This document shows positions 6,602 through 40,923 of a stretch of 40,923 bases of DNA, piece after piece. Position 1 is the first letter of the stretch. Each line of letters opens with the position of its first letter. The notes beneath the pieces are model-generated. The model ran no database searches, was not told where the DNA came from, and was given only the letters and a program-made list of their open reading frames with translations. The DNA is from a virus, in IMG/VR virus record IMGVR_UViG_3300047496_000087, positions 1 through 40,923 of that record; one strand, written 5' to 3'. A program made the translations under genes and the position numbers.

Positions 6602-7195
6602 CTAGTTTATATCGCGCCATGTCTTTCCAGTTTTAATAGAATGAAGTGTCGTCCTAGATATATTAAAATCTTTACATATACGTTTCATCATCACGTCCAT
6701 AGATAAAAGTTTTTTTATCTCTTTAACTTGATCAATACTTAACTTTTCAACTTTATGTCTGTTCTTAGATAACTTATCACGTTGATTATCAAGAGCATTT
6801 CCTAACCATAAATGTTCAGGATTTGTACATGATGGATTGTCACAAGTATGCAGCACCCACAATCCATTAGGTATTTCACCTTTATAAATCATGTAGCTCG
6901 CCCTATGTGCCATCACTTCTTTACCTCTAAAAGTTAAACATCCATACTTCATTTTTACTTTTTTACAGCCATTCCAATTCCAGCATCCATCTTGCTTTAT
7001 AACAAACTTATTAAAAGACTTTTCGAGCTCATATATCGTATCTTGAGACGCCCATTTTTCTCTTAATTTTGTAACACTAATTGTTCCCATAGTTTTCATT
7101 TGGCATGGTTTAGAGCAAAATCTTGAAGTATTTATCTTGTCACTTCTCACTAAATATTCCGTAGAACATTGATCGCAATTTTTAGAAAGTTTCAT
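6602..7195 (-). CDS. Free-standing HNH homing-type endonuclease (HNH_3-like) with a C-terminal HTH
   Basis: Motif HRASYMIYKGEIPNGLWVLHTCDNPSCTNPEHLWLGNALDNQRD, plus an N-terminal CxxC...C..C region and C-terminal ISRTTLHSIKTGKTWRDI. The gene is visibly AT-rich compared with the flanking fibre genes. Confidence 0.85.
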   Translation of the reverse strand: MKLSKNCDQCSTEYLVRSDKINTSRFCSKPCQMKTMGTISVTKLREKWASQDTIYELEKSFNKFVIKQDGCWNWNGCKKVKMKYGCLTFRGKEVMAHRASYMIYKGEIPNGLWVLHTCDNPSCTNPEHLWLGNALDNQRDKLSKNRHKVEKLSIDQVKEIKKLLSMDVMMKRICKDFNISRTTLHSIKTGKTWRDIN

Positions 7196-7253: not shown

Positions 7254-8759
7254 CTATGCGCTACAGGTTACGTTGACCCAAGTTGTGCCACTGTCGGTAT
7301 TCACGTACAACCTGGACGTAGCACCAGCTGGGTCTGATCTGAGATACATTGATCCGGCAGGTGCTGTAATAGCTGAAGGAGCACCGGCACCAGAAAGTAC
7401 CAATAATCCACCAGGTAGACTGAGTCCACGACCTGCAGTGGTAACACTCAGACCATTTGCAGCAACAACGTTAGTTCCGGTAGGAGTAACGAGTGCCAAT
7501 GTTGAAGAAGCTGTAGTTGTACCAATTGTGGTAACATTGGCAGCTGCACCAGTTGCTATATTGACTGTTTTAACACCAGCACCAGTACCAAGGTTGATTA
7601 TTTGAGCACCAGTACCAATACCAAGGTTAATATTACCAGTTTGGGCAGTTGAAACACCACCACCAATAGTAATAACACCTGTTGTCATAGCTGTACCGAT
7701 ACCAATCGTACCACCGGTTTGGTTGTTACCAAGACCAATTACGTTAGCCCCAGTACCACCAATATCAATAGTCTTAACAACAGCAGCACCAGTACCAATA
7801 TCAATGGTAGTCGCTGACGCATCAGTTGAGATAGATACTAAACCAGTACCACTGTTAATTGATATTGGGTTGTTTGTATTCGTTAAATTAATACCGCCAG
7901 AACCTGAATGGAGTGTAGTTGTAGAAGTTGTATTGGTCGATCCAAGTACGGTAGTTTTTGCCCCAGCGCCTGTTGCAATATTAACAGAGTTTGCCGTAGC
8001 ATCACCAGAAACGGTCACCGTTCCTGTACCGGTATTTGCCGTAAATATACCGTTAGTTGCCGTAAGTGAGTAACCACCAGTACCAACAGTAGATGTAAGT
8101 CCACCGGCAGCATTTGATGCTGTAAGTGTAATAGCTGCTGCAGTTGATTTACCACCACTGAGTGTCACGCCACCAGCAGTTGAAACGAGATCTATTGATG
8201 TAGCACCAGTTCCTTGAAGTGATTGCACAAGGATCGTTTCCGATGTACCGCCATTAGCTGTTAAGGTAATCGCACCTGCAGCGTTGTTGGTAGAAGCAAG
8301 AGAGATAGATGCAGTATCAGTAATATCAAAATCACCTGTAACAGCGAGATTGCCTGAAACAGTAACATCATGAAGTGTTGATGCACCTGTTACATTCAAT
8401 GTTCCCGTAGCTGCCACGTTAGTTGCTGTAATAGCACCCGTAGTTGCTGCTCCCGTTAAGGTAGTTGTTCCGGCAACTGTAAGATTACCTGTATCAATGT
8501 TAACTGATCCAGGAGATACTAAAAGTGAGGTTAGGGTAGTTGCTCCAGATGATGGAGCTTGAGTCCAAACAGATTCGCCAGCAGTCGTACCAACATTGAT
8601 AAAAGAAGTTTGAGTAGCTGTGTTGACCCAGGTTTGACCAATTTCGGCAAAATCAGTCGTAGATGGGTCTTGCACTGCTATAACAGGTGCTGGAAATTGA
8701 GCTGAGAATGGCCCTTGAAAGCCATATGAATTAAAAGAAGCGCGTTTCTGAGTTCCCAT
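7254..8759 (-). CDS. Tail fibre/spike protein (501 aa), beta-helix-like repeats
   Basis: TAGGAG RBS. The N-terminus (DFAEIGQTWVNT...) resembles that of 35852..37069. The middle segment TVNIATGAGAKTTVLGSTNTTSTTTLHSGSGGINLTNTNNPISINSGTG is shared with 2158..3093 and 37083..38825. The C-terminus reads GSMYLRSD...LYVNTDSGTTWVNV. Confidence 0.8.
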   Translation of the reverse strand: MGTQKRASFNSYGFQGPFSAQFPAPVIAVQDPSTTDFAEIGQTWVNTATQTSFINVGTTAGESVWTQAPSSGATTLTSLLVSPGSVNIDTGNLTVAGTTTLTGAATTGAITATNVAATGTLNVTGASTLHDVTVSGNLAVTGDFDITDTASISLASTNNAAGAITLTANGGTSETILVQSLQGTGATSIDLVSTAGGVTLSGGKSTAAAITLTASNAAGGLTSTVGTGGYSLTATNGIFTANTGTGTVTVSGDATANSVNIATGAGAKTTVLGSTNTTSTTTLHSGSGGINLTNTNNPISINSGTGLVSISTDASATTIDIGTGAAVVKTIDIGGTGANVIGLGNNQTGGTIGIGTAMTTGVITIGGGVSTAQTGNINLGIGTGAQIINLGTGAGVKTVNIATGAAANVTTIGTTTASSTLALVTPTGTNVVAANGLSVTTAGRGLSLPGGLLVLSGAGAPSAITAPAGSMYLRSDPAGATSRLYVNTDSGTTWVNVTCSA

Positions 8760-8830
8760 AGAATCTCCTAAAAAGTTTTTATAGTTTGTTCGATCTCTAG
8801 TATTGAATAAGCACAGTATAAAGCAAGTTC

Positions 8831-8859
8831 TTGCTTTTTTATTTCTAGCATGCTAGAAT
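8831..8859 (+). promoter_or_regulatory. Sigma70-like promoter for the plus-strand RHH cassette
   Basis: TTGCTT (8831-8836), a 17-nt spacer, then TAGAAT (8854-8859). It lies 20 nt upstream of the ATG, with an AAAGGAA RBS at 8866-8872. Confidence 0.55.
8843..8858. promoter_or_regulatory. Perfect 16-bp palindrome TTCTAGCATGCTAGAA, candidate operator
   Basis: Read directly. It overlaps the spacer and -10 of the predicted promoter, immediately upstream of an RHH-type gene. Confidence 0.5.
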
Positions 8860-8878
8860 ATAGTTAAAGGAATAAATT

Positions 8879-9061
8879 ATGGAAAACAAAAAAAAACGCT
8901 ACCAAATGAACTTTGATATGACCGAGAATGATTATTTTAAAATAAGAGAGTTGGCTGCACGAAGAAATATTAAACCGAGTACATGGGTTTTAAGGGCTAT
9001 AGGTAAGCAGATTATAGAAGATACAAGATTTGATAAACCAAGTAGTTTGCATAACATGTAA
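8879..9061 (+). CDS. Ribbon-helix-helix (CopG/Arc-like) DNA-binding protein, 60 aa
   Basis: RYQMNFDMTENDYFKIRELAARRNIKPSTWVLRAI fits a beta-strand, helix, helix pattern. It has its own promoter and RBS and lies on the strand opposite the surrounding late genes. Confidence 0.6.
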   Translation: MENKKKRYQMNFDMTENDYFKIRELAARRNIKPSTWVLRAIGKQIIEDTRFDKPSSLHNM

Positions 9062-9157
9062 TGAAAAATTTGACTACATAAGAAAAGGAAGAAAAAGAAG
9101 CTGGAAACACGTACCCATCGATTAAAAAGCCCCCGCAAGGAGGGCTAGGGATAAATT

Positions 9158-9334
9158 ATGGATATTGGATTGAGAATATTTGAAGTAGTAATAGTGGCAA
9201 TTATATTTTCCATACCAGCTTTATTGATCAAAGCTCTTTTAAAGGCTCAAAGAGATCCAAACAACTACTGGAATCAGCCTTGGAAAGTAGAAGTTGTTAA
9301 TTCATGCAAATGCATAAATGAAGAATGTAAATAA
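9158..9334 (+). CDS. Small single-pass membrane protein (58 aa; below the ORF-track cutoff)
   Basis: ATG preceded by AAGGAGGGCTAGGGATAAATT. Translation: MDIGLRIFEVVIVAIIFSIPALLIKALLKAQRDPNNYWNQPWKVEVVNSCKCINEECK. It has a hydrophobic N-terminal helix and is followed directly by a hairpin. Confidence 0.5.
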   Translation: MDIGLRIFEVVIVAIIFSIPALLIKALLKAQRDPNNYWNQPWKVEVVNSCKCINEECK

Positions 9335-17223: not shown

Positions 17224-18273
17224 CTAGTTATTGTTAACGCTGAATGACTTACCAGCAACCCAATAAATAACATCGTTCAATACGCCAGCAGGTGAGCTAG
17301 TACCTGGTTGGAGCAAGATTCCGATATATCCTGTGTTGTTGGTAGCATCACCGAGAATATTGACATTGGCAGACAATGCTTCAGCAGTATTCTCACCAAT
17401 TGGCACAACTTGCGCTGGTGTGAAACCAGGAGCTGTAGTCAATGGGAATGCGAATGCGGTAAAGCCAGTAGTATCAACATCGATGGTAATAGTATTTGTA
17501 GAACTATTAACACCAGCTGCACCAACTGCAACAATCGTTGCTTGTACACCATTAAGATCAGTCATGCCATAAGCAGTTGCTGTAACCGTTGGAACGATCA
17601 AGCGAACTTTTTGCCCTACTGTATAACCATGCGTAACAGAAAGGGTAACAACAGCTTGTGTTGCTTGGCTGATACCTGTAATGATACGACGAGCTGGATA
17701 ATAAGAAGGATCAAATGGAATGACGCGGTATGTTCCTGTACCAGCGTTAGTAGTAACAGTAGCCATGTTGATTAAATCAAAGCTTGTATTACTTACTACG
17801 TTAGCAACAGAGAAATCAAGGCCGCTTAGTTGCAAGTTTCCTGCAACATTGAAGATACGTACAACACCAGCTTGTTTGTCAGCGCCTACCACAGCGGTAA
17901 CAGGCAAGTTATTGGTGTTAGCAGTAGCTACAAGAGGAGTACTATGCGCACCGCCATTACCAGTAATACCGGAAATAGCAGTTGATGCGCCAGGAATATT
18001 GACTGATGAATCAACCAAAAAGAATCCAGCGTTAGCTGCAATCTGTGCAACTGCAAGAGCATTGGTAGCGGTTGTTTTGGTATAAACAGTACCACGTCCT
18101 TGCGTCATGCCACGTTGCCAGTAGAATTCTGCGCCAGTGCTGCCACCAGCTGCATATTGAACCGTTTGGTTGTAGACCCACATCCAATCTAAATCAGAAC
18201 GAATCTGAATAGTCGTTGGTGTACCAGTAGAAGTAAATCTACCTTGGTTTGTACCGGTAAATATAACACTCAT
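17224..18273 (-). CDS. Virion protein (349 aa) immediately downstream of the major capsid gene; possible capsid decoration or accessory protein
   Basis: 10 nt separate it from the MCP stop, and a hairpin follows it. It is Thr/Ala/Gly/Val-rich and looks beta-rich. No motif recognised. Confidence 0.4.
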   Translation of the reverse strand: MSVIFTGTNQGRFTSTGTPTTIQIRSDLDWMWVYNQTVQYAAGGSTGAEFYWQRGMTQGRGTVYTKTTATNALAVAQIAANAGFFLVDSSVNIPGASTAISGITGNGGAHSTPLVATANTNNLPVTAVVGADKQAGVVRIFNVAGNLQLSGLDFSVANVVSNTSFDLINMATVTTNAGTGTYRVIPFDPSYYPARRIITGISQATQAVVTLSVTHGYTVGQKVRLIVPTVTATAYGMTDLNGVQATIVAVGAAGVNSSTNTITIDVDTTGFTAFAFPLTTAPGFTPAQVVPIGENTAEALSANVNILGDATNNTGYIGILLQPGTSSPAGVLNDVIYWVAGKSFSVNNN

Positions 18274-18283
18274 GGTCTACTCC

Positions 18284-18691
18284 TTAACGTAGTGTACAAC
18301 GCATGTTGGTGATCCAAAGGTCATTTAAGATCCTTGGAACCTCAGCAAACGTGTACCCAACTGTAATGTTTTGAGCCAATGCATCAGAGTAGATCGCAGG
18401 ACGGTAAATGAACTGCGCTGAATAGTTATCTTGTTCAACACAAGCCAATGATTCCATACCTTGTACAAAAACGTTATACACGTTATTACCAAGAGCAGAA
18501 GCATTAGGAGTGATAGAAGCAACAGAAGACACCATAAAGCGAACGTTGTTAACCGCGCCCCACTCACTTTCCGTAGCTTTTGCGCCACCTTGTGGATAGT
18601 TCCACTGTGGAATAAAGTTAGGCAAGTTATTGAGGTCTTTAACCAAGTCAGTGTGCGCTAATGCGAGGTACGCATTACGAACAGGAGCTGT
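18284..18691 (-). CDS. Major capsid protein, exon 3 (135 codons plus stop)
   Basis: Begins TAPVRNAYLALAHTDLVKDLNNLPNF... directly after the intron's terminal G, in frame with track ORF 18284..18646. The C-terminal part looks like an HK97-fold MCP (...EWGAVNNVRFMVSS...). Confidence 0.85.
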   Translation of the reverse strand, partial: TAPVRNAYLALAHTDLVKDLNNLPNFIPQWNYPQGGAKATESEWGAVNNVRFMVSSVASITPNASALGNNVYNVFVQGMESLACVEQDNYSAQFIYRPAIYSDALAQNITVGYTFAEVPRILNDLWITNMRCTLR

Positions 18692-18899
18692 CAGTCTGTT
18701 ACTTTTATGACCTATTTCTAGGCGGGGAAGCTCTTCGGCATTCCCTCACGGAGTTTCCTTCCGTGGTCAGACTATCGCATACCCTTTCGGGCCTTTCTCA
18801 CTTAGTCGTTCAGGCTGCTTGCGCTTGCCCCTTGTTACCATAGCTTGCGCTTTAGGCTTCCAAGTCAATTAGAGAAAGTTTTACTTCGGCACATAGTTT
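18692..18899 (-). ncRNA. Group I self-splicing intron 2 (208 nt, no ORF) in the major capsid gene
   Basis: P1: exon UUCGGU pairs with intron GCCGAA, with U.G at the splice site. P3: UUUCUC/GAGAAA. P7: GACUA/UAGUC. P8: GCCC-GAAA-GGGU. P9: CACGGA...UCCGUG. A further hairpin is CCUA-GAAA-UAGG. The intron ends ...AACAGACUG. Confidence 0.85.
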
Positions 18900-19130
18900 A
18901 CCGAAACGATCCATACCAACTTGTGAGCCAAGGATCATCCATGCGTTGTTTGTCAGCAACGTAGAAGTCACTTCGTCCACATCTGAAAGTGCTAGATCTG
19001 TAGGCAAGTCCCCATTTGTACCGCCTGTGCAGTTGTAGATCGATGCTGTCGATGCAAGCATGTCTCTGGTCAACTGATCCTCGGTCATACGGAGACTTAA
19101 TCCAAGCAGCTCTGCAGTTTCATTTAATAC
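18900..19130 (-). CDS. Major capsid protein, exon 2 (77 codons)
   Basis: VLNETAELLGLSLRMTEDQL...GSQVGMDRFG. Both junctions are phase 0 and the length is 231 nt. Confidence 0.85.
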
Positions 19131-19341
19131 CATTCTGTTACTTTCATGACTGCCGGATCAATCCAGTCAGCGGGAAAATCTCTTCGGATTCTCCTCTTCA
19201 TGTTGCCATGAAGATCAGACTATCGCATCCCATTTCTGGGTTTTCTCACTTAGTCGTTCACGCTGCAATTACGCTTGCGCCTTGTCGTCCGCGAGGGAGT
19301 TCCAAGTCAATCAGAGAAAATTTATAGACCCCATACATTTT
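19131..19341 (-). ncRNA. Group I self-splicing intron 1 (211 nt, no ORF) in the major capsid gene
   Basis: P1: exon GACCCU pairs with intron GGGGUC, with U.G at the splice site. P3: UUUCUC/GAGAAA. P7: GACUA/UAGUC. P8: CCCA-GAAA-UGGG. P9: UCUUCAUG-GCAA-CAUGAAGA. The intron ends ...AACAGAAUG. Confidence 0.85.
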
Positions 19342-19653
19342 AGGGTCTTGGTTTTGCAATGTTACTTGCTGGTTAATTGCAATGTACTGGCCATAGAATG
19401 ACATGGTAGCATCGATATCAACACGAGTCAAAGGCGTTGCTGGTGGGATAGCGCCGCTGGGCCCGAGAGGAACCGGTGCGGTTGGCAATCTGTCATAGCG
19501 CGCCATACGTAGGGTACGGCCACCTTTGCTTGGCAAACGTTTAGTAACAGCACCAAGCTTCATGATGAGGTTTGGTGTGCTTACTGACAATAGAACATCG
19601 TCCATTGTCTGTTGCACTGGCGCAGGCAGCAGGGAAGTAGTAGTGATCATCAC
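19342..19653 (-). CDS. Major capsid protein, exon 1 (104 codons)
   Basis: AGGAG RBS 6 nt upstream of the ATG. Translation: MMITTTSLLPAP...RMARYDRLPTAPVPL...SFYGQYIAINQQVTLQNQDP. It resembles the N-terminal part of the HK97-fold MCP family (N4-gp56-like). Confidence 0.85.
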
Positions 19654-19875
19654 TAACTCCTAACTACGGGCATAATAATTTTTTGGACACCGGGTTTTAG
19701 CTGGATGAGGGCTAGATATGCATCCTATGGCTCGGCGAACGCCATAAAGCGCCGAAGTTTGGCTCGATGAACACCAGATAGCATCGATGCAGGGAGTCTA
19801 CTATAAGTAGATGGAGTAAGTCAAGGTCCTGCTCGCCCTAGGAGGGAGTAGCGAGCAGGCAGTAATAAAAAGGCT
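19654..19875 (-). other. 222-nt untranslated, GC-enriched, hairpin-dense spacer/leader between the scaffold and capsid genes
   Basis: No ORF. 9-bp stem CCTGCTCGC/GCGAGCAGG (19828-19859). Palindrome GCATCGATGC (19781-19790). Stem TCGGCG/CGCCGA (19732-19755). Confidence 0.4.
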
Positions 19876-20613
19876 CTATCTTCTAGCAGCAGCTTCACGT
19901 GCTTGTCGTACAATAGCACGTCTTTGATCGTCTGTCAGCACTCGTCTATCACGGTCGGTAAATTCAACCAACGGCGAATTGGATGCCTGAGGAGCTACAT
20001 TAGCAATTGATCTTGGCTTGGCTTTGTTCTGGTCAATCTTTTGGTCTGCAGCTGAGTAGGAATTATATGCTGCATTAGATGCCATTACGCCAGAGCTCTT
20101 AATAAGCTCATAAGCAAGGGAACCGCGATCATAAAGGTCTTGGTTAGCCAAAATAGCACGATAAAGAGCAGGTTTTTGGAACTCGAGCGACTTGATATTC
20201 TCAGTAGTAACAACCGCATCAAAGTCTGAGTATTGCGACTTAAGAAGCATTTCAGCCTGCTTAGACGAACTCTGTTGTTGGTATTCCTGAAATTGTTTCT
20301 TGGTATTTTTAAGTTCTTGCGTAACACTTTTGAGAATCTTTTTAAACTGCTTGCCTTCAATGTATGCATCATCAGAAACATCAATAGAATCATCTTCTTC
20401 AACAACAATCTTGTTGCCTTGGTGCTGATTCATATTCATCTGCATCATACGCTCAAGTTCAGCAGAACGTCGCTCAGCAGCTTCAGTACGGTCTCTAAGC
20501 TCCTTAAAGTGTCGAGTTCTAGCCTCTTCTTGATGCTGAACCTGCACTTGTTCTTGTTCAACAGCAGGAGTTTCTTGTACTACTTCTTGGGTATTTTCTA
20601 GCTCATTAAGCAT
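19876..20613 (-). CDS. Scaffolding protein (245 aa)
   Basis: Acidic/basic coiled-coil composition (EQEQVQVQHQEEARTRHFKELRDRTEAAERRSAELERMM...). It lies between portal and MCP, upstream of the MCP. Confidence 0.65.
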   Translation of the reverse strand: MLNELENTQEVVQETPAVEQEQVQVQHQEEARTRHFKELRDRTEAAERRSAELERMMQMNMNQHQGNKIVVEEDDSIDVSDDAYIEGKQFKKILKSVTQELKNTKKQFQEYQQQSSSKQAEMLLKSQYSDFDAVVTTENIKSLEFQKPALYRAILANQDLYDRGSLAYELIKSSGVMASNAAYNSYSAADQKIDQNKAKPRSIANVAPQASNSPLVEFTDRDRRVLTDDQRRAIVRQAREAAARR

Positions 20614-39038: not shown

Positions 39039-40010
39039 TTAGAAATATTCAATTACAATACAATATCCTGCTCCACCAGTTCCGCCTGCACCTGAGTTGG
39101 TACCGTTGAGGCTGCCGCCGCCTCCACCACCACCGCCGCCTGGTAGGCCACCTGTGCCACCTGCTCCAGCAGCAGCTCCTGCAAACTGTCCACCGCCACC
39201 GCCTCCTCCAGTTCCACCAGTAATAAGGCCACCCGTTGTAGTTATACCAGGATTGCCATCACCACCTCTAATAGTACCAGATTCAGTTCCGCCAGATCCA
39301 CCGGCGGTTATAGTAGATCCGTTCAAAGCATAGCAGTTAGCACCACCATTGCCACCAGCTCTTTCTGCTCCAGAATCGGCGCCACCTCCACCACCTCCTC
39401 CAGTTCCAAAAAGAGATCCTACAAATAAACTTGTAGTTACTGATGAATTAGCGGCAGTTGTTCCTGCTGTATTATTTCCCGCAGCGCCAGTAGCAGAATC
39501 TGTACCAACAGTTCCCGTATATTGCACTTGATAATAATCCCCTGATCCACCACCTATAGTAGTAGTCGTACCACCACCACCACGCGATGAAGAACCATTT
39601 CCTTTGGTAGAAATGTACCCTAAGGAAGTTAGCCCTGCAACGCTTCCTGCTGTACCATTAGTTGAGTTAGTGGTTTGAGCTCCACCTCCACCACCACCAT
39701 TACCAATAGTTACTGTTTCAGAAGGACCATAAAAAAATGCTGGAACAGTATAATAGGTAACTCCTCCTGCTGCACCACCTCCACCGCCTCCTGCTGCAGT
39801 AGTAAGACCTCTTCTTCCCGAACCACCACCAGAACCACCACTCCATAAAATGGTAGTTACGACACGCGTAGATGGGTTCTTAGTCCAAGTGCCACTGGCA
39901 GAAAAATTGGTAACTAGATAACTACCAGATATCGAACTTACAAGCCCACTGACATCCACAAGGTAGCCATCAGGAAGACCACCGGTACTAACTGTATTAT
40001 TGACTGACAT
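39039..40010 (-). CDS. Glycine-rich (polyglycine-run) virion protein, paralog C
   Basis: 323 aa with the same motif order as paralog A, ending GGGGGGGGSLNGTNSGAGGTGGAGYCIVIEYF. The 3' third is roughly 75-80% identical to paralog A at the nucleotide level by eye. Confidence 0.8.
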   Translation of the reverse strand: MSVNNTVSTGGLPDGYLVDVSGLVSSISGSYLVTNFSASGTWTKNPSTRVVTTILWSGGSGGGSGRRGLTTAAGGGGGGAAGGVTYYTVPAFFYGPSETVTIGNGGGGGGAQTTNSTNGTAGSVAGLTSLGYISTKGNGSSSRGGGGTTTTIGGGSGDYYQVQYTGTVGTDSATGAAGNNTAGTTAANSSVTTSLFVGSLFGTGGGGGGGADSGAERAGGNGGANCYALNGSTITAGGSGGTESGTIRGGDGNPGITTTGGLITGGTGGGGGGGQFAGAAAGAGGTGGLPGGGGGGGGGSLNGTNSGAGGTGGAGYCIVIEYF

Positions 40011-40021
40011 ATTACTTCCTT

Positions 40022-40923
40022 TTAAGAGTATTCAATGACTATACAGTAGCCGGCCCCACCAGTTCCACCAGCACCAGATGTTGTTCCATTTATAGAACCA
40101 CCACCGCCGCCTCCTCCTCCACCCGGTAGGCCACCTGTACCACCTGCCCCAGCAGATCCACCTGTTTTTTGACCACCCCCGCCACCTCCACCAGTACCTC
40201 CGGTAGGACATCCACCTGTTGTTAGATTGCCAGAATTACCATTACCACCGGCAATAGTTCCTGTTTCTATACCACCAGTACCACCGGCTATTATAGATGT
40301 ACCATTATTGTTATAAACAATATCACCACCTGGTCCACCAGCTCTTGCAGTAGAACTATTACCACCACCACCAGCACCCCCACCACTAGGGAACATTAAA
40401 TAAATTTGAGGTTTTGTTGCAGCAATTTGGCCACCAGTACCACCAGTGCTAAGTCCACCAGCACCCCCCTGTGCAGTAACAGATACAGTAGCCACACTAG
40501 AACCAGAAAAGAATTGAGCAGTGGCTCCGCCTGTATTTGTTCCGTTTACACCACCAGCACCATAACTCGTAGGCTGTGGACCAGATGCCAAATTTCCTAG
40601 ACTAGACACAGCGCTTGGATTTCCATTAATACCATCAGTTGTAGAGGATGATTGCCCAGAAGCACCACCACCACCGGCAGCTATAGTTACTGTTTCAGTT
40701 GAGTTAAATGATGATGCTGGTCCTGACCAATAGAGTACATTACCGGCGCCACCTCCAGAGCCACCTCCTGCAGCAGCAGTCAATCCTTGTCTACCAGACC
40801 CACCACCAGCCCCAGAATTCCATAATATGACTGAAACAGTTCTGGTGTTGGCACCTTTTGTCCAAGTTCCACTCCCACTAAAGGTAGTAGTAGTTACACC
40901 ACCAATAGTAGTAATTGAGCCAG
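40022..40923 (-). CDS. Glycine-rich paralog D, C-terminal part; truncated by the window end and continuing at 128..206 via the circular junction
   Basis: The open frame runs to the window end. The track start at 40783 is an internal Met. C-terminus: GGGGGGGGSINGTTSGAGGTGGAGYCIVIEYS. Confidence 0.8.
   Translation of the reverse strand, partial: GSITTIGGVTTTTFSGSGTWTKGANTRTVSVILWNSGAGGGSGRQGLTAAAGGGSGGGAGNVLYWSGPASSFNSTETVTIAAGGGGASGQSSSTTDGINGNPSAVSSLGNLASGPQPTSYGAGGVNGTNTGGATAQFFSGSSVATVSVTAQGGAGGLSTGGTGGQIAATKPQIYLMFPSGGGAGGGGNSSTARAGGPGGDIVYNNNGTSIIAGGTGGIETGTIAGGNGNSGNLTTGGCPTGGTGGGGGGGQKTGGSAGAGGTGGLPGGGGGGGGGSINGTTSGAGGTGGAGYCIVIEYS
40797..40923. repeat. Terminal overlap, identical to 1-127
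   Basis: See the first feature. Confidence 0.95.

Follow-up and report, generated by a model that had tools for sequence, protein, structure and literature searches.

Two compact introns, probably of group I and of a mobile family, in the major capsid protein gene of an uncultured virus

The concept of the intron homing cycle has been reviewed (PMC3984707), and most of the closest described systems are found in phages. The psbA intron of phage S-PM2, with the free-standing endonuclease F-CphI, is the precedent for collaborative homing (PMC3984707, PMC6083498), and the nrdB intron of T4, whose own endonuclease is defunct, is mobilized in trans by MobE (PMC2790892). Mycobacteriophage LittleE (Cluster J) has a capsid-gene intron with a bottom-strand LAGLIDADG open reading frame (ORF), a related 265-nt ORF-less intron lies in tail genes of the phages BAKA and Optimus, and a capsid-gene intron of Tuc2009 is cited in the same work (PMC3706429); in the Delta and Zeta groups of crAss-like phages, the major capsid protein (MCP) genes are riddled with introns (PMC7886860). 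Here, we describe the MCP gene of the virus record IMGVR_UViG_3300047496_000087, the whole of which (40,923 nt; here called the window, whose numbering is used throughout) was analyzed. Two inserts in this minus-strand gene, A and B, are best read as compact, ORF-less group I introns in a late gene and as endonuclease-less members of a mobile homing family, a reading that we hold with a probability of about 0.85.

The gene is present as three ORF fragments, separated by two noncoding inserts, between a scaffold-like gene (19876..20613) and a gene for a 349-amino-acid (aa) structural protein (17224..18273), all genes in the vicinity being on the minus strand. Joining 19650..19342, 19130..18900, and 18691..18284 yields a 315-aa protein that matches the Pfam capsid family PF25209 and has some 2,000 homologues among database proteins (E ≤ 0.001), several of them named “N4-gp56 family major capsid protein” by JGI. 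Its best intron-less homologues, of 314 to 315 aa, align over 100% of the length at up to 82 to 83% identity, and the translation of exon 1 is colinear with intron-less homologues beginning MITT. An alignment of 14 MCP sequences has zero gaps at the junctions QDP/VLNE and RFG/TAPV, around which residues D102, V104, L105, G180, and T181 are invariant. The limits given in the earlier note, 18692 and 19341, are the exact 3' end of intron B and 5' end of intron A. Both inserts have stops in all three frames (in the exon frame, 27 codons inside A and 15 inside B), and no in-frame ORF, such as an intein or a translated insertion would have, passes through either. Neither contains an endonuclease ORF, for which 211 and 208 nt leave no room, just as had been claimed. 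Nucleotides 1 to 127 of the window are identical to 40797 to 40923, and the assembly is therefore complete and circularly closed, with a genome of ~40,796 bp and 41% G+C that carries just one capsid gene; by tblastn with the MCP, no cultured phage exceeds 28% identity.

Both inserts have the anatomy of group I introns (Table 1). Each starts nine bases ahead of a guide hexamer to which the last six exon bases are complementary, and each ends in AACAGA(A/C)UG, that is, with a terminal G; the helices P3, P4-P6, and P8 are present in both, as are the P3/P7 pseudoknot and a P9 domain of three hairpins. In P7, A(C)GACUA/UAGUCU, a G-C pair adjoins a bulged base, as at the guanosine-binding site, C262(A263)G264 in Tetrahymena. 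Three blocks are invariant: UUUCUCUGAUUGACUUGGAA (P3 5' strand plus J3/4-P4), GAACGACUAAGUGAGAAA (J6/7, P7 5' strand, and P3'), and AUGCGAUAGUCUGA (J8/7 and P7 3' strand). The sequences quoted in the earlier note occur on the minus strand of both elements, namely, UUUCUCU(G/A)AUUGACUUGGAA, GAACGACUAAGUGAGAAA, AUGCGAUAGUCUGA, the CGAAGA loop, and AAAGUAACAGA, and the note was also right about the differing stems (GGAGAAUC/GAUUUUCC versus GGGAAUGC/GCUUCCC(C), and CCCA/UGGG versus GCCC/GGGU) and about guides that match their own exons (GACCCU/GGGGUC in A and UUCGGU/GCCGAA in B). The minimum-free-energy fold of intron B recovers P1, P3, P4, P5, P6, P8, P9, P9.1, and P9.2, and the folds of both introns are more stable than those of shuffled sequences (z scores in Table 1).

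Table 1. Features of the capsid locus, its two inserts, and related sites, in window coordinates unless residues are given
Feature	Position	Strand	Description
Intron A	19131..19341	-	Group I-type without an ORF, 211 nt; follows codon P103 and precedes V104; R1 score 209.3 bits; fold z -3.4
Intron A guide	19327..19335	-	GGGGUC (19332..19327) with exon GACCCU (19347..19342), forming P1 with a U.G pair
Intron A P10	19335..19333	-	UAU pairs with GUA, the first 3 nt of exon 2
Intron A catalytic core	19217..19258	-	P7 5', P3 3', P8, J8/7, P7 3'
Intron A P7 5' strand	19257..19251	-	A(C)GACUA
Intron A P3 3' strand	19247..19241	-	GAGAAAA
Intron A P8 hairpin	19240..19229	-	
Intron A J8/7	19228..19223	-	AUGCGA
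Intron A P7 3' strand	19222..19217	-	UAGUCU
Intron B	18692..18899	-	Group I-type without an ORF, 208 nt; follows codon G180 and precedes T181; R1 score 212.5 bits; fold z -3.3
Intron B guide	18885..18893	-	GCCGAA (18890..18885) with exon UUCGGU (18905..18900), U.G at the splice site
Intron B P10	18893..18891	-	UGU pairs with ACA of exon 3
MCP exon 1	19342..19650	-	ATG at 19650; codons 1-103; 3' end ...CAA GAC CCU; AGGAG 6 nt 5' of ATG
MCP exon 2	18900..19130	-	Codons 104-180, VLNETAELL...MDRFG
MCP exon 3	18284..18691	-	Codons 181-315 plus stop
Intron-less junction at site A			..CAAGACCCU / GUAUUAAAU..
Intron-less junction at site B			..CGUUUCGGU / ACAGCUCCU..
MCP insertion sites of the family	residues ~12, 27, 79, 96, 104, 112, 123, 146, 171, 181, 215, 223, 228, 262, 274, 277, 281, 301, 306		
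HNH_3 endonuclease gene	6602..7195	-	Free-standing; PF13392, 36.7 bits; seven HNH or endonuclease PHROGs

Relatives of the two inserts were gathered by blastn against GenBank phages and by an exact-pattern scan of IMG/VR (at least 120 contigs). For 12 of these relatives, RNAalifold recovers P1, P3, P4, P5, P6/P6a, and P8, and this structure, with P9 hairpins added, yielded a covariance model, R1, of 214 positions and 51 pairs. Run on the window with filters off, R1 returns introns A and B at 209 and 212 bits, the next best match scoring 11 bits; no further copy of the family was found in the window by this search or with exact 11-mers of the core. In 100 sources, the model finds 150 copies, and more than 150 were found in all. 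Across 139 distinct sequences aligned to the model structure, 94.8 to 95.1% of helix cells pair, against 64 to 68% after shuffling and 35 to 49% with a slid 3' partner, and the observed values are reached by 0 of 500 shuffles; taken singly, the helices pair in 94 to 100% of cases. Double compensatory changes are seen in 48 of the 51 pairs (52 of 58 with P7 and a candidate P9.0 pair included), including all 7 pairs of P1, whose splice-site pair is U.G in 80 of 135 sequences. The P7 extension pair across the bulge, which is absent from R1, is AU in 98 sequences, GC in 22, CG in 1, UA in 1, and unpaired in 0, and the P7 G-C pair is invariant across the family, in part owing to how the sequences were collected. 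The terminal-G column holds a G in 89 of 144 family sequences, with exon-like composition beyond it. When A and B themselves are compared on the family consensus structure, 34 pairs are identical, 19 differ by double compensatory changes, 1 has changed on one side, and 2 are broken, well in excess of what chance would give. The earlier note had taken covariation as the sign of a functional RNA and had proposed that its loss among additional homologues, or translation of the segments in relatives, would speak against this; with about 140 distinct homologues the covariation is strong, and the outcome clearly favors a functional RNA.

The family to which A and B belong lacks P2 and has one hairpin between P3' and P7', three hairpins after P7, and a conserved CGAAGA hexaloop. 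Subgroup IA2 has by definition two additional helices, P7.1 and P7.2, between P3' and P8, and neither is found in A or B, in which one 12-nt hairpin (P8) lies between P3' and J8/7. The T4 td and nrdB introns (IA2) closely resemble the window introns in the P7 3' strand and P9, where AUAGUCUG(G/A)AC leads into a hairpin with the cap UGG(N)AACA, and the P7'-P9 stretch (AUAGUCUGNAC plus a hairpin with the cap UGG-NAA-CA) is almost the same in both. The J6/7-P7 segment AACGACUA is also common to both. The T4 introns differ in carrying ORFs as well as P7.1 and P7.2 and score only ~17 bits with R1, whereas the window introns lack P2, have P8 as the one hairpin separating P3' from P7', and carry the CGAAGA loop in a P9 domain of three hairpins. 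Like A and B, the S-PM2 psbA intron is phage-borne, ORF-less, and about 210 nt long (212 nt), resides in a highly expressed gene, and is aligned by R1 over P1, P3, J3/4, P4, P5, P8, J8/7-P7', and P9. It differs in that the Rfam group I model RF00028 gives it 87.8 bits and leaves A and B unscored, in that its endonuclease gene (F-CphI) lies directly downstream of psbA whereas the sole nuclease candidate of the window is 11.5 kb off, and in being one intron rather than two from a family with many sites in one gene. The comparison in size with the Azoarcus tRNA-Ile intron (~205 nt, subgroup IC3), made in the earlier note, is a fair one between near-minimal lengths for a complete group I core; the Azoarcus intron differs in its position in a bacterial tRNA anticodon loop, its P2, and its subgroup, and at 212 nt the ORF-less S-PM2 intron was already known.

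With the Cluster J mycobacteriophages, the present system shares an MCP intron, antisense LAGLIDADG genes (here in site-A relatives of the loci L010, L014, and L261), an ORF-less relative elsewhere, and free-standing HNH genes. Cluster J differs in that splicing was shown there experimentally and in having one intron per gene, and no sequence relation was detected, blastn of GenBank phages having returned four records, none of them from a mycobacteriophage. The crAss-like phages are alike in being uncultured and in having an MCP gene split into several pieces by group I introns, and they differ in phage lineage and MCP family; their introns were recognized through endonuclease domains, an approach that the mostly ORF-less family described here would escape. 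A and B thus add new members to a kind already known, that of capsid-gene group I introns. The family itself is more unusual, in its abundance, its invisibility to Rfam, the number of its sites in one short gene, and its apparent modular mosaicism. A literature search, not exhaustive, brought up precedents for capsid-gene introns and for collaborative homing and no description of this family.

The family is present in at least 120 viral contigs (IMG/VR, exact pattern) and at least 43 genome stretches, and it ranges over uncultured phages, two GenBank phage records, Bacillaceae assemblies, and metagenome-assembled contigs of many phyla. By blastn, four records of GenBank phages have core similarity; in a podovirus from spring water, a “P22 coat protein” is split by the core, which also matches an unannotated stretch of Desulfovibrio phage SRB7757. 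An unannotated member scoring 101.7 bits lies in Roseobacter phage CRP-118 (OR420741.1, ~35.0 to 35.3 kb; positions 2485 to 2720 of L002), where gp44 and gp45, both annotated as “ribonucleotide reductase,” appear to be one gene split by that intron; CRP-118 is a cultured phage, open to a direct test of splicing. In several Bacillaceae, the core interrupts ribonucleotide reductase right after the conserved ATNPCG motif. The genome stretches include Neobacillus, Bacillus, and Heyndrickxia assemblies (L222, L227, L232, L236, L240, and L256), in addition to L226, L235, L245, and L258, and in Bacillota the core also interrupts ORFs that, judged by eye, resemble tape-measure proteins. The core is also found in metagenome-assembled contigs assigned to many phyla, archaea included, which may be misbinned viral contigs.

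Capsid genes of the lineage represented in the window are a hot spot for the family. Of the first 123 loci with introns, about 27 code for a homologue of the window MCP (30 to 81% identity), and in this MCP lineage at least 19 insertion positions map onto the window protein (Table 1; residues are numbered on the 316-aa query with a GTG start, one more than from the ATG, so that sites A and B are 104 and 181). A single capsid gene may contain up to six R1 matches, and in four loci (L052, L030, L056, and L051), one capsid gene and its surroundings hold four to six matches (in L030, as many as seven). The insertions show no convincing bias of codon phase (33, 24, and 18 in phases 0, 1, and 2, many of them ambiguous). 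Among the 80 closest MCP relatives in IMG/VR (61 to 83% identity), 75 are intron-less and the other 5 each have a single intron, located at residue ~12 or ~301; sites A and B are empty in all 80, and about half of the empty alleles retain an exon hexamer able to pair with the window guides. R1 matches of 120 to 190 nt were considered as smaller “mini-introns” and rejected: in L014 and L010 they are the 3' halves of introns of ~740 to 800 nt with a LAGLIDADG gene in P6a. On the minus strand of L014 (~1340 to 1361), a mini-exon of ~22 nt (..ACUUUACAAAAUCAAGACCCU, encoding TLQNQDP) stands between two family introns. Exact-protein lookups for near-identical genomes with other intron content returned just two contigs of one run, L259 and L260 (Logan, run ERR9963794), which encode proteins identical to those of the window's scaffold and post-capsid genes and each of which terminates within intron B. 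The repetition of the intron sequence seems to interrupt assembly from short reads, and such capsid genes are probably underrepresented as intact genes in metagenomes.

Alleles with and without introns exist at both codon positions, as emerged when the check proposed in the earlier note was run. A search of IMG/VR for the exact 5' junction of site A gave 19 contigs, in 13 of which the 3' exon was located. Those 13 contigs hold seven introns of 739 to 773 nt with an antisense LAGLIDADG ORF (PF00961, 30.8 to 42.5 bits), four of 358 to 470 nt, and three of 219 to 239 nt. The long introns (L010, ~8516 to 9254; L014, ~533 to 1352; L261; L263; L264; L273; and L277) have the same 5' end and guide as intron A, the first 15 nt of the L010 intron being those of intron A; the LAGLIDADG gene of L010 lies within the P6a loop, and the protein of L014 is 39% identical to that of L010. 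For site B, the junction was found in 10 contigs, whose introns span 197 to 786 nt; in the longest (L285), a LAGLIDADG motif stands in a sense-strand ORF whose Pfam score, 19 bits, is subthreshold. Site B has the same three states as site A, with a weaker endonuclease assignment. Two further loci (L003 and L116) have an HNH_3 gene inside a family intron, in P9.2. Because empty, endonuclease-bearing, and endonuclease-less alleles share one codon boundary, the picture is that of a classical homing cycle. The earlier note had left it undecided whether mobility is provided in trans or has been lost; LAGLIDADG versions at the same sites in relatives now give the likely answer, and a role for the resident HNH protein is less likely.

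That protein is encoded by the only recognizable homing-type nuclease gene among the 52 ORFs of the genome (Pfam, PHROGs), RusA being the sole other nuclease match, and its distance from the introns, 11.5 kb, is as the earlier note had it. Its homologue in L209 (4281 to 4874) sits between homologues of the neighboring 501-aa and 124-aa genes, a gap that is empty in L210 and L211, and L209 has a second HNH_3 copy elsewhere (718 to 1272); given this presence and absence between the same neighbors, it behaves as a free-standing mobile gene. Apparently mobile and the sole candidate in a complete genome, it could be thought to cleave intron-less capsid alleles at one or both sites and so to drive the ORF-less introns in trans, as in the collaborative precedent of S-PM2 psbA and F-CphI (PMC3984707, PMC6083498), and HNH_3 genes do occur inside the two other family members just mentioned. 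We regard this as improbable. Known collaborative pairs are adjacent, whereas here ~12 genes intervene and no link between the HNH gene and the introns was found; the resident protein has no meaningful similarity to the intron-borne HNH_3 proteins of L003 and L116 (E values of 0.2 and 0.002, over short stretches); HNH homologues also occur near intron-less MCP genes (L130 and L178); and the endonuclease genes at sites A and B in relatives are of the LAGLIDADG type. In the earlier note, introns A and B were paralogous twins, one of which had seeded the other site, and copying between capsid sites within the phage lineage, followed by compensated drift of the stems, would suit their shared family and architecture and their 19 compensatory pair differences, as well as the intron at site B of L109, the closest intron-bearing MCP relative, which is among the nearest to both A (82%) and B (81%). 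Over ~170 core columns (P1 and exon bases excluded), however, the two are 72 to 73% identical and rank only 21st and 33rd of 149 as each other's neighbors. A has closer relatives in the L025 intron at MCP residue ~228 and the L109 site-B intron (82 to 83%), and B in introns of L024, L040, and L109 (81 to 82%). By segment, B agrees with the L109 site-B intron in P1 (22/27 positions), P3 (18/19), and P8 (12/12) and departs from it in P4-P5 and P9, and A agrees with the L025 intron in P4-P6 (23/26 and 21/21 positions), where it matches that intron better than it does B, and departs from it in P1 and P8; on such comparisons of sequence segments, the family looks modularly mosaic. The guides of A and B differ at five of six positions, and the “near-identical cores” are invariant family-wide and therefore uninformative on any special relation of the two. 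Separate acquisitions, rather than a duplication inside this genome, probably brought in A and B, and the claim of twins, for which we see little chance, does not survive the comparison.

Spread at the level of RNA, in which introns would reverse-splice into capsid mRNA at short sites complementary to their guides and be copied back into DNA, is about as doubtful. It would account for the 19 or more sites at which related introns interrupt one very highly transcribed gene of 945 nt, a pattern of the circumstantial kind also used for rDNA introns (PMC3984707), and two introns from one site are often less similar than two from different sites. But no reverse transcriptase was found in the genome, the mosaicism and the same-site LAGLIDADG genes fit homing at the DNA level plus recombination, the reviewed literature gives no direct evidence for the pathway (PMC3984707), and a simple copy would not splice because guides differ between sites. 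A broader version, in which an uncatalogued compact group I lineage repeatedly jumps among the 19 or more sites of the capsid gene by an endonuclease-independent route, either reverse splicing into abundant capsid mRNA or swaps of guide modules between coinfecting introns, strikes us as somewhat less far-fetched, if still unlikely; if it were true, no natural system so far would match this capsid gene for the observation of ectopic group I transposition. Least credible of all is that A and B are not introns but dead insertions inactivating the capsid gene, assembly artifacts, or bypassed or translated segments. The missing Rfam match and a case built on DNA sequence could be cited in favor, but the boundaries restore the frame to the nucleotide at invariant residues, stops occur in every frame, covariation maintains ~50 pairs over ~140 sequences, independent assemblies of run ERR9963794 have the same exon-intron arrangement, and the genome is otherwise complete with a single capsid gene, all of which makes this very hard to sustain.

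Returning to endonuclease-less group I introns of a homing family, some observations weigh against that reading. The Rfam group I model (RF00028, Intron_gpI) gives no match at its gathering score or at E ≤ 10, on either 1.7 kb or 231 nt. The same model detects the positive controls (T4 td, 40.3 bits; T4 nrdB, 35.7 bits; and S-PM2 psbA, 87.8 bits), and the null result therefore reflects the reach of the model and is no evidence against introns; it lowers confidence in the group I assignment slightly, a database model being a detector and not a defining property. R1, built from this family alone, has its top matches in the control loci in S-PM2 psbA (25.9 bits, E = 4e-8), T4 td (17 bits), and T4 nrdB (P7'-P9, 16.7 bits), and these cross-matches to accepted group I introns fall at the correct positions; the family is a divergent, compact group I lineage beyond the reach of the curated model. 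P10 amounts to just 3 bp. Pair counts come from an alignment fitted to the model structure, which somewhat inflates pairing (the P7 pairs lie outside the model), and the sample of relatives is biased, coming from an exact-pattern scan and from the matches listed only. The core of intron A is 65 to 72% identical to those of the endonuclease-bearing introns at site A and so is not especially similar to them. Finally, we infer the splicing of A and B from their sequence and the established group I mechanism, and we likewise infer the direction of change, be it loss or gain of endonuclease genes.

Under that mechanism, the pre-mRNA would fold, and attack by an external guanosine, after the exon U, would free the 3'-OH of the exon for a second attack, after the terminal G of the intron. 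Two such events would produce the 315-codon capsid mRNA, and failure of either would leave no capsid protein; that the two events act as a regulatory checkpoint, as the earlier note suggested, is speculation. A and B would represent the endonuclease-less stage of a homing cycle or hitchhikers on one, a state reached by loss of the endonuclease gene or sustained by carriage through relatives' enzymes in mixed infections. In such infections, an endonuclease would cut empty alleles, repair would proceed from the intron-bearing allele, and recombination between family members would shuffle their modules. The P1 hairpin of intron A together with AUAAAUUUUC (19326 to 19348, minus strand) was flagged as resembling an intrinsic terminator, by consensus match only; if the site pauses or terminates RNA polymerase, transcription would be coupled to P1 folding.

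For annotation, the consequence is that gene callers cut this capsid gene into three ORFs while Rfam is silent, and the same family, in at least 120 viral contigs and in genomes from culture, splits capsid, ribonucleotide reductase, and (by appearance) tape-measure genes, whose pieces are there annotated as separate genes. One capsid position offers empty, endonuclease-bearing, and endonuclease-less stages side by side, and at least 19 positions in one 945-nt gene are rich material on site change and on the loss and gain of endonuclease genes. For work on RNA, the family provides a group I core of ~200 nt, supported by covariation, in more than 100 natural variants.

Two other features of the window lie outside the introns. 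A gap of 222 untranslated nt between the scaffold-like and capsid genes (19654 to 19875, minus strand) contains a strong 10-bp hairpin (~19859..19828); its structure is not significant overall (z = -1.4), and it has no similarity in the fetched loci and no Rfam match. Four minus-strand ORFs of 253 to 326 aa (216 to 1196, 1206 to 2150, 39039 to 40010, and 40022 to 40783), three of which are 47 to 57% identical to the first, have no Pfam or PHROG match and may be diversified tail-fiber or receptor-binding genes; on the circular genome, they form a single tandem array spanning the assembly junction.

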